Source: a virus (Duplodnaviria > Heunggongvirae > Uroviricota > Caudoviricetes). From it: DNA of 23,636 bases. Every line of letters begins with the position of its first letter. Position 1 is the first letter of the stretch. The notes beneath the pieces were generated by a model. The model worked only from the letters and a program-made list of their open reading frames with translations, was not told the origin of the DNA and made no database searches. The stretch is taken from IMG/VR virus record IMGVR_UViG_2897328257_000001; one strand, given 5' to 3'. The position numbers and the translations under genes were made by a program. Positions 3,603-23,636 of this stretch are shown here, in pieces.

Positions 3603-3965
3603 TTAACGACCTGCTGCGCGGAGTTTTCCGTCAGGTTCACCGGCAAGAGTCAGTAATTGTCCCTGGTCTTCCTGCAGAATAGTCAGGCGACCACCGCGAT
3701 TGACATACATCGGCGTTTCGGTGGTGTCTTCTTCGGAAATTTTCCCGCGGTTAGTTGGGCGAACATATGAGAGTTTGTGTTTGATTTTCACACGGTTCTC
3801 ATCAAACGGTTCGATTTCCAGATTGAGTGAGACCTTCCCTTTGGTTTTCGTGTTCATCACACCGGAAGCGACCTCACTGAGAACTGCGCCGATTTTGGTT
3901 TCAAATACGCCGCCGTCCAGCTCCCCGATAAATGCCTGCACATCAGTACTGCGTTCGCTAGCCAT
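3603..3965 (-). CDS. Hypothetical early protein, 120 aa (YfdP-like); start at ATG 3965 (MASERSTDVQ...)
   Basis: AGGAG 7 nt upstream of ATG at 3965; the longer ORF-track N-terminal extension is Cys/Arg/Pro-rich and runs into the GC-rich non-coding region, so is unlikely to be translated. Confidence 0.65.
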   Translation of the reverse strand: MASERSTDVQAFIGELDGGVFETKIGAVLSEVASGVMNTKTKGKVSLNLEIEPFDENRVKIKHKLSYVRPTNRGKISEEDTTETPMYVNRGGRLTILQEDQGQLLTLAGEPDGKLRAAGR

Positions 3966-4014
3966 TTTGCTGCTCCTCATCATATCGACCCTGCAAGGTC
4001 GGTTGGTTTCTCCA

Positions 4015-4101
4015 CAAAACAGAGAAGAACACCTGCGGTGGCAGCCGCCCGGATGGATTGGGTTATGAGCCCGTCGTCCGGTGATGCTCTTCTCTGTTTT
4101 G
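4015..4101. other. Long-range perfect 14-bp inverted repeat (CAAAACAGAGAAGA at 4015-4028 / TCTTCTCTGTTTTG at 4088-4101) enclosing a 59-nt GC-rich segment with nested small hairpins; candidate structured RNA element
   Basis: Seen directly; a 14-bp perfect IR with a 59-nt spacer is very unlikely by chance in 23 kb. Confidence 0.5.
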
Positions 4102-4111
4102 CAAAAAAGGA

Positions 4112-4220
4112 CGGTACCAGCCGGAAGCAAGGGTACAAACTGGTACCGCCAGGACTACACACAGCATAAACTTGTGGTGCCGGGTGCCTCCCGGTGCCTG
4201 GCGAAGGTTGCACACCAGGC
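4112..4220 (+). ncRNA. Candidate structured non-coding RNA region: tandem GC-rich hairpins (CGGTACCAG 4112-4120 / CTGGTACCG 4140-4148; CCGGG-tgcct-CCCGG 4180-4194; GCCTGG 4196-4201 / CCAGGC 4215-4220)
   Basis: Several perfect stems within about 110 nt in a region with no credible ORF; flanking G-T pairs extend the 4180-4194 stem only on the plus strand (G-U in RNA), weakly favouring plus-strand function; no family assignment possible without searches. Confidence 0.35.
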
Positions 4221-4376
4221 GGGTGGGTATCCACAGAAGGTCGACTGTCAGCCTCAACCTTAACCCGCGTGCGCTGAGCCGCATTCACCACAACGCTAAG
4301 GATTCTCTCTGGTTGAAAATACTTAGCTGTTATGTGCCTGCTTTTAGCCACATCAGGCGAGGTGGACCTGGTTATT

Positions 4377-4421
4377 CCCCAACAACAAGGATTCGGTTAA
4401 TCTGGATATCCCCAACAACAA
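4377..4421 (+). repeat. Direct repeat of 12-mer CCCCAACAACAA (4377-4388 and 4410-4421), each preceded by GGTTA, in the leader of the plus-strand ORF
   Basis: Seen directly; CA-rich repeats immediately upstream of the putative start codon. Confidence 0.5.
4399..4417. repeat. Left copy of about 19-bp imperfect inverted repeat (AATCTGGATATCC-c-CAACA) flanking the 4436-4951 ORF
   Basis: 13-bp perfect core AATCTGGATATCC at 4399-4411 is the reverse complement of 4967-4979; flanks also match in inverted orientation (18 of 19). Confidence 0.6.
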
Positions 4422-4435
4422 TAAGAGTATTCAAT

Positions 4436-4951
4436 GTGATCGCTGAATTAACGGCAGCAATGACGGCTATTCGTGAAACAGCCCAGATTGCAAAACTAAT
4501 GAACGAGGCAAAAACTCAAGCTGAAGTAAATGCGGCTATTGGTGAGCTGAACTCAAAGCTTGCGTCTATTCAGCGCGAATGCGTGTCTCTCGTTGAACTG
4601 GTGGGCTCTTATCAAGAAATAAATGCTTCTCTCAAAGCTAAAATTGCAGAATTCGAAAACTTTGAGGCTCAGACGGAAGGCTATATCCTTAACCAACTTG
4701 AGTCGGGTACTTTTGTATACTCGAAGGAGGTAATCGTGAACGGTGGCAGCATAACCATGCATCTTTGCCCAAAATGTTTTGGACAAAAGATAGTATCGAT
4801 ACTTCAACCATTCCCGGTTAGCGAAGATGAGCTTTTTCATAAAAGCAGGTGCCTCCACTGTGAAAATAAGTTTCTGATGAATAAAAATCCGGATTACGTA
4901 TCGCCTCCATCCATTGAGGAGTTGTCCAGAAAACTTAACGGCAATCTGTAG
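4436..4951 (+). CDS. Hypothetical protein, about 171 aa: N-terminal coiled-coil-like helical region plus C-terminal CxxC...CxxC zinc-ribbon-like motif (CPKC ... CLHC); candidate moron, function unknown
   Basis: Longest ORF in an AT-rich segment; putative GTG start at 4436 with AAGAG 8 nt upstream (alternative ATG at 4460); intrinsic terminator 40 nt after stop; oriented opposite to the PL operon; flanked by inverted repeats. Confidence 0.6.
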   Translation: MIAELTAAMTAIRETAQIAKLMNEAKTQAEVNAAIGELNSKLASIQRECVSLVELVGSYQEINASLKAKIAEFENFEAQTEGYILNQLESGTFVYSKEVIVNGGSITMHLCPKCFGQKIVSILQPFPVSEDELFHKSRCLHCENKFLMNKNPDYVSPPSIEELSRKLNGNL

Positions 4952-4960
4952 ATTACTACT

Positions 4961-4979
4961 GTTGTGGATATCCAGATTG
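4961..4979. repeat. Right copy of the about 19-bp inverted repeat (core GGATATCCAGATT at 4967-4979)
   Basis: Reverse complement of 4399-4411 core; contains 10-bp palindrome TGGATATCCA. Confidence 0.6.
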
Positions 4980-4988
4980 TTAAAGAGC
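4976..4988 (-). promoter_or_regulatory. rrn-type boxA-like element on the PL transcript (minus-strand GCTCTTTAACAAT); candidate nutL-type NusB/NusE site
   Basis: 13 of 13 match to the core of the E. coli rrn boxA (TGCTCTTTAACAATTTATCA, from memory), about 105 nt downstream of the predicted PL start, where nutL sits in lambdoid phages. Confidence 0.45.
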
Positions 4989-4990
4989 TA

Positions 4991-5014
4991 AGCGTCCTGT
5001 AGGGCGCTTTTTTG
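4991..5014 (+). terminator. Rho-independent terminator for the plus-strand ORF (AGCGTCC-tgta-GGGCGCT followed by TTTTTT)
   Basis: 7-bp stem (one G-U) plus six T; the stem is weaker on the minus-strand RNA (A-C mismatch) and no U-tract follows in that direction, so it is unidirectional. Confidence 0.7.
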
Positions 5015-5081
5015 TTGCTAACGAATCATCCTGGACTTCATATGCCCCAGGCGGCTACTTCGTGGGCGTCCTGCCTGTTTG

Positions 5082-5120
5082 TTGTTTCTCTTGGGTACAT
5101 TATGTATCTCATAGGTACAT
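5082..5120. promoter_or_regulatory. OL-like operator region: 19-mer ATGTATCTCATAGGTACAT (5102-5120) plus degenerate copy TTGTTTCTCTTGGGTACAT (5082-5100)
   Basis: Shares the GTAC-containing symmetric 19-mer pattern with the OR sites (TTGTACC-N5-GGTACAA; ATGTAC-N7-GTACAT); overlaps the PL -10 and spacer. Confidence 0.5.
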
Positions 5121-5165: not shown

Positions 5166-5840
5166 TTAGGCTTTGATTTTGTATCTTCTTGGTTTTCCTG
5201 AGAAAATCACAGTTCCAATTATAGAGCAATTACCGTTGATCTTAATGTAAGGCTCAGGCCAGTTTGGGTTTAACGCTTTGAGATAACGCTGTGTCCCATC
5301 TTCTATCAACCTTTTGAAGGTGGTTTCACCTGTATCGTGCATCAATGCAATAACGTCGTCACCGTGGCAGGCAGGTACTTCAGGATCGACAAAAATCATG
5401 TCTCCCGGGCGGTACTCATCAATCATTGAATCACCTATCACCCGCAAGATATAAGTCATTTCCCCACAGGGTACAGGGCAGGGATACGTTTCTGCTGTGC
5501 TCAAATCAACCTCAGAATATCCAACTTCTTTCCATGCTCCGGCCTGTACCCATGATATGACAGGGACTAATGTGATTTGTTTATTAGTGATTGAAACATC
5601 AGGTTTTTTTGTGATGTTCGTTGTCTGGTGTTCTTGATCGAGCCATCCGACAGGCAGGTCGAAACATTTTTCGATGTGTCGTGCCATGCTGTCACCGATA
5701 TTTTTAGTAGCACCATCTCCCATAAACCTGCTGGTCTGGGTTGGCTCGCGATCAATCATAGTGGCAAAGGAAGAATTCCCTCCAACACCATCTCTCAGTT
5801 TTCTGGCGTTAGACCGCCGGATGTCATGGATTGTTTTCAT
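5166..5840 (-). CDS. CI-like prophage repressor with C-terminal LexA/S24 peptidase (autocleavage) domain, 224 aa
   Basis: C-terminal VIGDSM ... GDMIFVD ... TFKRL (Ser/Lys dyad) typical of S24 repressors; divergent from a cro-like gene across an operator region; no SD before the ATG (possible leaderless PRM transcript as in lambda). Confidence 0.85.
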   Translation of the reverse strand: MKTIHDIRRSNARKLRDGVGGNSSFATMIDREPTQTSRFMGDGATKNIGDSMARHIEKCFDLPVGWLDQEHQTTNITKKPDVSITNKQITLVPVISWVQAGAWKEVGYSEVDLSTAETYPCPVPCGEMTYILRVIGDSMIDEYRPGDMIFVDPEVPACHGDDVIALMHDTGETTFKRLIEDGTQRYLKALNPNWPEPYIKINGNCSIIGTVIFSGKPRRYKIKA

Positions 5841-9198: not shown

Positions 9199-10440
<1,242 letters not shown>

Positions 10441-23052: not shown

Positions 23053-23636
23053 TGGCATTCAGAATGAGTGAACAACCACGGACCATAAAAATTTATAATC
23101 TGCTGGCCGGAACTAATGAATTTATTGGTGAAGGTGACGCATATATTCCGCCTCATACAGGTCTGCCAGCAAACAGTACCGATATTGCACCGCCAGATAT
23201 TCCGGCAGGCTTCGTGGCTGTTTTCAACAGTGATGAGGCATCGTGGCATCTCGTTGAAGACCATCGGGGTAAAACCGTCTATGACGTGGCTTCCGGCGAC
23301 GCGTTATTTATTTCTGAACTCGGCTCATTACCGGAAAATGTCACCTGGTTATCCCCGGAAGGGGAGTTTCAGAAGTGGAACGGCACAACCTGGGTGAAAG
23401 ATGCAGAAGCAGAAAAACTGTTCCGGATCCGGGAGGCGGAAGAAACAAAAAACAGCCTGATGCAGGTAGCCAGTGAGCATATTGCGCCACTTCAGGATGC
23501 TGCAGATCTGGAAATCGCAACGGAGGGAGAAACCTCGTTGCTGGAAGCCTGGAAAAAGTATCGGGTGTTGCTGAACCGTGTTGATACATCAACTGCACCT
23601 GATATTGAGTGGCCTACGAACCCTGTCAGGGAGTAA
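23052..23636 (+). CDS. tfa: Tail fibre assembly protein Tfa, 194 aa
   Basis: [44 protein letters not shown]... matches lambda Tfa family; start overlaps the stf stop. Confidence 0.93.

Follow-up and report, generated by a model that had tools for sequence, protein, structure and literature searches.

DicF, a proven trans-acting small RNA (sRNA), has its 5' end generated by RNase E and its 3' end either by a terminator, giving an RNA of 53 nucleotides (nt), or by RNase III cleavage of read-through RNA, giving one of 72 nt (PMC5069750). In the case of RprA, a processed form consisting of the last 47 nt coexists with the full-length RNA and is active on some targets (PMC9262595), and RprA binds csgD mRNA both upstream and downstream of the hairpin SL1 (PMC4152358). 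PasD has been linked structurally to STnc100 (Zhu et al., 2026 preprint). Here we describe an element that resembles each of these RNAs in part, located at 4365-3973 on the minus strand of a 23,636-nt stretch of DNA of a tailed phage (IMG/VR record IMGVR_UViG_2897328257_000001; hereafter, the window), whose gene order is that of a lambdoid prophage of the e14/CPS-53/SfV type. The element is a conserved minus-strand non-coding RNA, the leader of the operon transcribed from the leftward early promoter (PL) of this prophage. With somewhat better than even confidence, we favour the reading that this leader is a DicF-type 'terminate-or-process' sRNA cassette equipped with the seed of RprA.

In the direction of transcription, the element consists of a conserved 5' box, a hairpin (P1), a multi-branch domain (unit A), a single-stranded seed box, an intrinsic terminator and a three-way junction (unit C), followed by the translation-initiation region of yfdP (Table 1). 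The terminator, with a fold of about -20 kcal/mol and a U-tract on the minus strand only, would be the 3' module of a putative sRNA. Its stems covary between phages (GUCGGCGUC/GACGCCGAC, UGCCCGC/GCGGGC and GGCGGUUAUCC/GGAUAACCGCC), whereas the seed box next to these changing stems is near-invariant among variants. Seed and terminator together (4171-4103) occupy the slot held by DicF in Qin-type prophages. In four IMG/VR loci (L138, L154, L209 and L219) DicF has a related multi-helix domain of the cdtI type on its 5' side and, on its 3' side, a second structured domain preceding dicB, and in three others (L147, L150 and L252) a GCUGUGUGUAGUC cassette is found in exactly the slot of DicF. The substitutes in this slot read ...CUGCUGUGUGUAGUCUUGGCGGCAUCAG...CCGCCCUUUUU, and the linker to the downstream domain, AAAGUGAAUUUUGKGA, is unchanged. 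DicF (RF00039) and the element are thus alike in belonging to a repressor-controlled early-left operon, in following a multi-helix domain and in preceding a second structured domain and the first gene, and they have a terminator stem family in common (GGCGGUAUCAG; GGCGGUAyCAG...CCGCC and then a U-tract). With the slot and linker kept in these prophages and the terminator stem family in common, seed and terminator of the element can be regarded as an alternative 'allele' of the DicF cassette. The two alleles differ in the downstream domain, which is unit C in the element and the dicB-proximal domain at DicF loci, and in the seed. The DicF seed UUUCUGGUGACGUUU, used for ftsZ, xylR and pykA mRNAs, is unrelated to UGCUGUGUGUAGUC of the element and is not present in it; therefore, targeting of the ftsZ type is not expected. 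The structural prerequisites of a DicF-like biogenesis, a U-tail and a 20-base pair (bp) helix beginning 1 nt after the U-tract, are found in the element. At the DicF locus L138, the 19 extra nt of the 72-nt form would, going by the sequence, place the RNase III cut within the 15-bp closing helix of the downstream domain. We found no description of an RprA-seed cassette in the papers searched, although the report on dicF-like prophage sequences by Faubladier and Bouché (1994) could have noted the homology of the DicF slot.

Inside the seed box, the 14-mer UGCUGUGUGUAGUC (4166-4153) is identical at 14/14 positions to the single-stranded stretch directly 5' of the RprA terminator (E. coli RprA sequence from the appendix of PMC7311995), and the conserved 3' single-stranded seed of RprA, UUGCUGUGUGUAGUCUUU, stands beside a terminator in the element as well. 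Similarity to RprA is more extensive in two relatives. Phage phiES15 shows a 24-nt match with one 1-nt gap, and phage LLS an identical run of 24 nt within an alignment to RprA nt 59-104, which make up all of the processed form with its terminator; with both phages, the Rfam RprA model scored 41 bits, below its gathering score of 70. Site I of csgD (UACUACACACAGCAGUG) is situated just 5' of SL1, at -99 to -83 from the ATG, and both RprA and the element are complementary to it. The predicted duplex with processed RprA reached -24.6 kcal/mol and that with the LLS seed -26.9 kcal/mol, values equalled by 0/200 shuffles in each case, while the seed of the element formed a perfect duplex of 13 bp of -23.4 kcal/mol, with at most 1% of shuffles as good. 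In contrast, neither the DicF seed on the csgD 5' untranslated region (UTR) (-7.4 kcal/mol, 0.87 of shuffles as good) nor the seed of the element on the rpoS leader (-16.5 kcal/mol, 0.52 of shuffles) gave a significant duplex. The putative sRNA of the element is therefore predicted to pair with csgD site I and to repress this regulator of curli and biofilm formation. For pairing with the rpoS leader RprA uses nt 30-72 (AACGAAUU...), most of which the phage cassette lacks, and, as the rpoS-pairing nucleotides of RprA are situated upstream of the portion common to both RNAs, activation of rpoS by the element is not predicted. RprA and the element also differ in that the 5' hairpin of RprA and its rpoS-pairing nt 30-58 are lacking in the element and the terminator stem is another one; moreover, RprA is a Rcs-dependent core-genome RNA transcribed from the chromosomal rprA locus, whereas the element belongs to a prophage and is part of an operon leader.

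The initial annotation, made from the letters of the window, had proposed a candidate structured RNA at 3990-4300. Structured RNA was indeed found there, but this range is too short, as the element reaches to about 4365 on one side and to about 3973 on the other. All the stems listed at that time are present: the 20-bp helix that closes the three-way junction has the 14-bp inverted repeat (4015-4028/4088-4101) at its core, the 9-bp stem (4112-4120/4140-4148) is the perfect portion of the 11-bp terminator stem, and CCGGG-tgcct-CCCGG (4180-4194) and GCCTGG/CCAGGC (4196-4220) are hairpins of unit A. When 365 nt, from 4330 to 3966, were folded, the minus strand gave -156.5 kcal/mol (z = -6.1) and the plus strand -141 kcal/mol (z = -3.0), which indicates that the density of stems is real and that the minus strand is favoured. 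The earlier suggestion that G-U wobbles speak for the plus strand had to be reversed, since several pairs of unit C are G-U on the minus strand only and pair 19-98 is U-G in 20/28 unit C variants. Unit C alone had z = -7.0 on the minus and -5.7 on the plus strand. A covariance model of unit C (R1) scored 100.1 bits on the minus versus 31 bits on the plus strand, and that of unit A (R2) 93.5 bits on the minus strand with no plus-strand match; neither model detected a second copy in the whole window.

Alignment of homologues, which had been recommended in order to look for compensatory substitutions, revealed them in both structured domains, although the counts do not represent independent events, as the sequences are related and recombining. 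In unit C (28 distinct variants, 31 pairs), 97.6% of the cells were paired compared with 39-52% in controls with slid partners, compensatory changes affected 11/31 pairs versus 1-3 in the controls, and the covariation score was 0.214 versus 0.03-0.06; 0/500 shuffles matched the observed pairing or covariation score. In unit A (11 diverged variants, 25 pairs), the corresponding values were 98.9% versus 29-52%, 7/25 pairs versus 0-3, and 0.329 versus 0.01-0.07. Hairpin H5 of this unit occurs with four different stems, all of them fully paired (CCGGG/CCCGG, CCUGG/CCAGG, GGUGG/CCACC and UCGGG/CCCGA). The stems of P1 are wholly different and nevertheless complementary in ST64B (GAUAAGAGUU/AACUCUUAUC), sal3 (GAUGAGAGUAUU/AAUGCUCUCAUC) and phiES15 (AUGAAGCGCAUU/AAUGCGCUUCAU). 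The 5' box is near-identical in this DNA, e14, SfV, sal3, phiES15, Kp4866-6 and LLS; it is able to form a small hairpin (GCCUG/CAGGC or CCAC/GUGG), and in LLS it is placed about 10 nt after PL. Thus, the proposal of a structured non-coding RNA is borne out by the minus-strand fold and by compensatory substitutions far above the level of the slid-partner controls, together with the lack of coding constraint described below.

Within unit C, the arm CACCGGRCGACGGGCUCAUAACCCAAUCCAYCCGGG is conserved, while the second hairpin is variable. The apical hairpin GGG-CUCAUAA-CCC (4072-4060) is invariant or nearly so among variants, with UUAAUAA in e14; CAU was kept in all unit C variants collected by pattern, but the search pattern itself demanded CAT. 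The 14-nt sequence CGGG-CUCAUAA-CCC (4060-4073, minus strand; CGGGCUCAUAACCC) corresponds to what we take to be the anticodon arm of E. coli tRNA-fMet, with its three initiator-type G-C pairs. Only these 14 nt resemble a tRNA: ARAGORN recognised no cloverleaf in the element and no tRNA or transfer-messenger RNA in the whole window. Pairing of the CAU loop with a downstream start codon or with the seed was also considered, and was dropped because, by eye, the candidate partners differ between variants.

The module is widespread. At least 80% of the element is held by 1,829/5,426 complete E. coli genomes, about one third, and diverged copies occur in phages of Shigella (SfV, SfII), Salmonella (ST64B, 118970_sal3), Cronobacter (phiES15), Klebsiella (Kp4866-6) and Escherichia (cdtI, Stx2c phages, mEp460, LLS). 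Two scans of IMG/VR with conserved patterns added about 200 further loci; in a previous scan of genome contigs with the 16-nt pattern TGCGGCTNWGCGCACG, nearly all matches were due to chance, in GC-rich genomes, and longer patterns were then used on IMG/VR. In all of these phages the element is found in the 400-800 nt that separate the repressor gene from the first early-left gene; in SfV, ST64B, cdtI, phiES15, LLS, sal3 and e14 this DNA between repressor/PL and the first early-left gene is un- or poorly annotated. The gene downstream differs (yfdP, xisE, yfdR, rdgC-like or kil), which indicates a portable module of about 350 nt rather than the leader of one particular gene. Mosaic breakpoints were located at 4365 and at about 4000, and a further one, at 4151, coincides with the base of the terminator stem. 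Some leaders depart from the common arrangement. The scaffold is rearranged in L270, L293 and L301, where a unit C-like domain passes directly into GUUGUGGUGAAUGCGC, the start of unit A, and mEp237 (L347, about 1640-1720) has a miniature unit A (GGUGGUGAAU...CACCACC) immediately before kil. Units A and C share the closing-helix motifs GUUGUG/CACAAC and may be paralogous. An extra intrinsic terminator is inserted between the 5' box and the rest of the module in phage LLS (L010, about 2130-2240) and in L271, L307 and L314, so that two terminators stand in the way of the polymerase within about 400 nt of non-coding RNA ahead of the first gene.

According to the reading that we favour, the cassette would work as follows; the minus-strand structure with its covariation, the terminator, the modularity, the non-coding character, the seed identity and the csgD complementarity were computed, and what we infer is that transcription comes from PL, that termination is partial, that RNase E and RNase III process the RNA, that Hfq binds it and that its targets are regulated. 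Once the LexA-like repressor is inactivated, leftward transcription from PL (about 5100) would proceed across the antisense moron, a plus-strand gene, into the module at about 4365. The polymerase would then transcribe P1 and the STnc100/PasD-like domain (4294-4169), the single-stranded box (4171-4151) and the terminator with its six U residues (4150-4103). An RNA terminated at the U-tract would have a 3' end of the kind usually bound by Hfq, and, by analogy with DicF and RprA, a cut by RNase E immediately 5' of the box would yield an RNA of about 65 nt resembling processed RprA. RNA resulting from read-through would include the three-way junction (4102-4014), whose 20-bp closing helix, starting 1 nt after the U-tract, is probably an RNase III site. 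Cleavage there would free the same sRNA and would provide the yfdP-yfdQ-yfdR...int mRNA with a new 5' end. The released sRNA, with the 3' seed of RprA, would pair at site I of the csgD 5' UTR, by which csgD would be repressed and rpoS not activated. Phage lambda offers a parallel for the second route, as its N mRNA leader is RNase III-processed. Like the element, this leader has a long helix between the leader signals and the first early-left gene, whose cleavage would remodel the 5' UTR; we know of no sequence relation between the two.

Several observations weigh against this proposal. The RprA match in this DNA is only 14 nt long and lacks the UUUGCCC continuation of RprA, the Rfam RprA model (RF00034; gathering score 70) gave no match on this DNA at E <= 10, and an RNA with a 14-nt RprA seed could instead be a competitor or decoy. 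The Rfam DicF model scored 15.7 bits (E = 1.3; 4163-4109, minus strand) against a gathering score of 48, and the gathering score of 47 bits of STnc100 was not reached either. Unit A as a single sequence has an unremarkable stability (z = -1.9). In the part of the O157 Sakai table of Hfq CRAC peaks that was covered, none falls in the Sp1/CP-933H region that carries the element, and the element is not among the novel sRNAs reported for enteropathogenic E. coli (EPEC) by RIL-seq. There is no N-like gene between PL and the terminator, and the proposal accounts neither for the passage of the polymerase through this terminator nor for the roles of unit A, of the 5' box and of the unit C arm with its tRNA-like hairpin.

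Two alternatives concern the very nature of the conserved DNA, and we consider both highly improbable. The homologous DNA of K-12 e14, which is 89-93% identical to the element, is annotated in RefSeq as ymfH (YmfH, 103 aa), and in a strain that is identical over the queried stretch the Prokaryotic Genome Annotation Pipeline reports a frameshifted pseudogene, 'hypothetical protein', at 3980-4291 (minus strand), so the element could be a homologue of a protein-coding gene, frameshifted here; an open frame of 123 aa is in fact present. However, the substitutions with respect to e14 are spread over the codon positions as 10/13/9, there are four indels versus e14 and two versus SfV and O157, every one of 1 nt, the longest open frame lies in different frames among variants, the overlapping open reading frame (ORF) matched no family in Pfam or NCBIfam, and the intrinsic terminator sits in its middle. 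From these results we judge the ORF to be an artefact, produced by structured DNA rich in G and C, as the initial annotation had assumed in finding no credible ORF, and they speak against the segment being a fragment of a protein-coding gene; it is base-pair covariation that accounts for the conservation. No report mentioning ymfH was found to describe an sRNA at this gene. Upstream of dicF, the four Qin-type loci mentioned above have a multi-helix domain of the cdtI type, and the region upstream of dicF is annotated in K-12 as the ORF ydfC (PMC5069750). By analogy, ydfC may be, like ymfH, an artefact over structured RNA. The other alternative places the function on the plus strand, as a structured RNA or leader regulating the moron (4436-4951), or regards the segment as a functionless recombination scar; its chances seem to us just as slight. 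The stems, being inverted repeats, can be formed on either strand, the plus strand of unit C has a strongly negative z-score too, and the three breakpoints make the region a mosaic junction. Against this, G-U pairs, covariance-model scores and fold energies all favour the minus strand, the terminator U-tract exists there alone, and the module is intact beside many unrelated upstream morons and also without any moron (LLS, cdtI). Thus, among the three origins first offered, a segment of the PL transcript was retained, whereas a moron leader was discarded because the moron runs away from the element, and a scar because the module is portable.

The remaining alternatives accept a minus-strand RNA and differ from our proposal in its origin or in its mode of action. 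The Rfam model of STnc100 (RF02076) aligns end to end with 4316-4101 of the minus strand (39.0 bits, E = 6.4e-7), and relatives score 35-41 bits. The element has the consensus architecture of STnc100: it is closed by the helix UGGUGAAU/CACCA, contains internal hairpins, CCGGGAGGCACCCGG among them, and ends in a terminator on the 3' side, and these helices covary. STnc100, PasD1 and PasD2 share with the element the closing helix ...UGGUGAAU/CACCA..., a hairpin right after GAAU, the CCGGG-AGGCA-CCCGG hairpin and then a terminator, whereas inner hairpins and seed are unlike. Together with a weak match of the unit A model to EPEC PasD1 (16.4 bits, E = 0.025), with the fact that PasD1 and PasD2 (172-173 nt) are Hfq-dependent sRNAs validated by Northern blots and with the structural tie drawn by Zhu et al., this would be consistent with an independently transcribed STnc100/PasD-type sRNA gene of about 215 nt (about 4316-4103), expressed in the lysogen from its own promoter and functional through its whole multi-helix domain. 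We regard such a gene as quite improbable, since a promoter scan detected nothing sigma-70-like just upstream of the element (4300-4450) on the minus strand, the place of a would-be -10 box, in P1, is not conserved among variants, the score is under the Rfam gathering threshold, and the known STnc100 and PasD members are late-region RNAs, encoded close to Q, stx and the lysis genes rather than within a PL leader. Given the sub-threshold score and the other genomic slot, the element is best seen as a distant architectural relative of STnc100/PasD; identity with the named EPEC Pas sRNAs or with the PP6 intergenic sRNA was rejected, as those are encoded in late regions. The initial annotation could not assign the segment to a known RNA family. 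As the Rfam thresholds for STnc100, DicF and RprA were all failed, the element is not filed as a member of any of them, but it is of the same kind as known prophage sRNA cassettes and has relatives among known RNAs: STnc100/PasD by architecture, DicF by slot and terminator, and RprA by its seed.

Alternatively, the element could be a purely cis-acting transcription checkpoint that insulates the integration and early-left genes until antitermination, with processing serving to tune yfdP translation and the terminated RNA as a by-product, which we hold to be unlikely, though less remote than the explanations above. Such a checkpoint would fit with a strong terminator before the first early-left gene in every variant, with two terminators in series in some leaders (LLS, L271, L307), with the lack of an N-like ORF between PL and the terminator, with a conserved and covarying two-hairpin element of about 70 nt right after PL, in the position of putL in HK022, with a boxA-like sequence upstream, and with unit C directly preceding the ribosome-binding site. 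It does not explain why the box 5' of the terminator is kept far more strictly than termination demands while the stems vary, nor why this box has the sequence of the RprA seed and fits a target site validated for RprA; in addition, DicF, in the same slot, is proven to act in trans (PMC5069750). Both modes are compatible, and StxS is a reported precedent for a terminated leader that is also trans-acting (PMC7547250). StxS and the element would share the logic that an operon leader terminated soon after its promoter yields a trans-acting sRNA and antitermination leads to read-through (PMC7547250); StxS differs in that it depends on the late promoter PR' of an Stx phage and on antitermination by Q.

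Going beyond the RprA-seed cassette itself, we tentatively consider a broader reading, doubtful as a whole, in which the PL leader of lambdoid phages would be a scaffold carrying interchangeable 'seed cassettes', DicF being one allele and the commonest allele copying processed RprA. Prophages of the e14/SfV/ST64B type would, upon SOS induction, release an RprA mimic that shuts down csgD and curli without activation of RpoS. The near-identity between the LLS cassette and RprA nt 59-104 would reflect shared ancestry in either direction, with a core sRNA derived from a phage or a host sRNA captured by phages, and GGG-CUCAUAA-CCC, placed in a 5' UTR, would functionally mimic the anticodon arm of the initiator tRNA. 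If the proposals made here are true, about one third of the complete E. coli genomes, including K-12 (under 'ymfH'), would hold a second source of the RprA seed, tied to prophage induction and not to envelope stress, which would couple SOS and prophage induction to the curli and biofilm regulator CsgD and would confound experiments with rprA deletions. DicF would rank as one allele within a modular scaffold of phage sRNAs, a concrete case of seed exchange between core and phage sRNAs would be at hand, and ymfH, probably along with ydfC upstream of dicF, would have to be re-annotated in K-12 from ORF to structured RNA. Finally, N-less phages with terminators before their early-left genes would make RNA-based antitermination directly testable.

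The features of the element and of the DNA around it are listed in Table 1. The minus-strand promoter downstream of the repressor terminator, whose sequence is also identical in e14, SfV and cdtI, is likely to be PL and is the presumed source of the transcript. Relative to it, the element is situated about 800-1100 nt into the leftward early transcript and adjoins yfdP, the first early-left gene. A small hairpin equivalent to that of the yfdP leader, GGCGGUGGCAGCCGCC, is found ahead of the ribosome-binding site in other variants. In K-12, ymfH has been grouped with e14 genes and with sulA and recN in the 'YmfT iModulon' and treated within the intE-xisE-ymfH operon (PMC12133099), which is consistent with SOS-linked expression.

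Table 1. Positions of the element's parts and of neighbouring features in the window
Feature	Position	Strand	Details
LexA-like cI repressor gene (ymfK)	5166-5840	-	cro-like gene comes next
Terminator of the cI-like repressor gene	5154-5135	-	terminator scan
Likely PL promoter, TTGACA-16-CATAAT	5126-5099	-	11/12 consensus matches; directly downstream of repressor terminator
Moron ORF	4436-4951	+	171 aa, GTG start
Conserved 5' box, CCACCUCGCCUGAUGUGGCUAAAAGCAGGCACAUAAC	4329-4365	-	start of conserved module; e14 homology begins here
Hairpin P1 (AGCUAAG...CUUAGC)	4295-4328	-	minimum-free-energy fold; sequence and length variable
Unit A, multi-branch domain closed by UUGUGGUG/CACCACAA	4169-4294	-	RNAalifold and pair counts
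Unit A closing helix	4293-4286/4179-4172	-	
Unit A hairpin H1	4282-4267	-	
Unit A long-range helix	4266-4262/4224-4221	-	
Unit A hairpin H4 (GCCTGG/CCAGGC)	4220-4196	-	
Unit A hairpin H5 (CCGGG...CCCGG)	4194-4180	-	invariant loop AGGCA
Single-stranded seed box, GUUUAUGCUGUGUGUAGUCCU	4151-4171	-	predicted unpaired in 69-nt product
Intrinsic terminator	4103-4150	-	GGCGGUACCAG (4150-4140) with CUGGUACCG(U)CC (4120-4109), U4111 bulged; U6 at 4108-4103
Unit C, three-way junction with 20-bp closing helix	4014-4102	-	fold and covariation
yfdP translation-initiation region	3963-4013	-	GGAGAAA box; small hairpin 4001-3986; Shine-Dalgarno GAGGAG 3978-3973; ATG 3965-3963
tRNA-Arg attachment site, intD, yfdT...yfdR, yfdQ, yfdP	leftward of the element (gene order)		yfdP at 3603-3965, minus strand

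No N-like ORF was found between PL and the terminator or, in any of the phages named above as carrying a diverged copy of the module, between the repressor gene and the first early-left gene. Directly downstream of PL, at 5018-5086 of the minus strand, there is a conserved element of about 70 nt (...CAGGCAGGACGCCCACGAAGUAGCCGCC-hairpin-GAUGAUUCG...) that recurs in phages of Escherichia, Salmonella, Yersinia, Pantoea, Pectobacterium, Citrobacter and Klebsiella. The hairpin in it appears with six fully complementary stems (CCUGG, CCCGA, CUACC, UCCGG, CCGGU and CCCGG), and its outer helix AGCGAA/UUCGCU is swapped for CCACC/GGUGG in mEp237. In position, size and two-hairpin form, this PL-proximal element (5086-5018) is like putL of HK022, and by this analogy it could be an RNA antiterminator acting on the terminator within the leader element; HK022-type put RNAs are two-stem RNAs of about 70 nt near the promoter that allow RNA polymerase to transcribe through terminators. 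The leader element itself is comparable to the put RNAs of HK022 as a cis-acting structured RNA in the PL leader of a lambdoid phage without N. In contrast to putL, however, the element at 4365-3973 is about 800 nt away from PL and contains a terminator rather than suppressing one. BLAST of leader and element versus the HK022 immunity region gave only matches of 8-13 nt, and by this measure the element is not a put sequence.

A second candidate signal, boxA-like AGCUCUUUAACAAU, lies at 4976-4988 on the minus strand, just 3' of a hairpin (4990-5009) that is the bidirectional terminator of the moron. We take it to be a near-perfect boxA of the rrn type (consensus UGCUCUUUAACAA). The combination of hairpin and UAGCUCUUUAACAAUCUGG recurs in seven distinct PL leaders, and by analogy the site may, in a NusB/NusE-dependent way, shield the long untranslated stretch from Rho.

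The moron is convergent with PL, and the PL transcript is therefore wholly antisense to it. A family library scan of its ORF gave no significant match, only a single sub-threshold coiled-coil match, and the C-terminal pair CPKC...CLHC suggests a zinc ribbon. The gene is flanked by an inverted repeat, AATCTGGATATCC(A/C)CAACA, at 4400-4420 and 4958-4980, complementary at 18/19 positions and with the palindromic core GGATATCC. In the PL transcript the two arms could pair at long range and so enclose the antisense moron; another possibility is that they are sites of protein binding or boundaries of an insertion. At the gathering level, the Rfam scan of the whole window reported only isrC (9259-9381, plus strand, 150 bits) and IS009 (23395-23593, plus strand, 226 bits), both full-length and both elsewhere in the prophage, outside the element.

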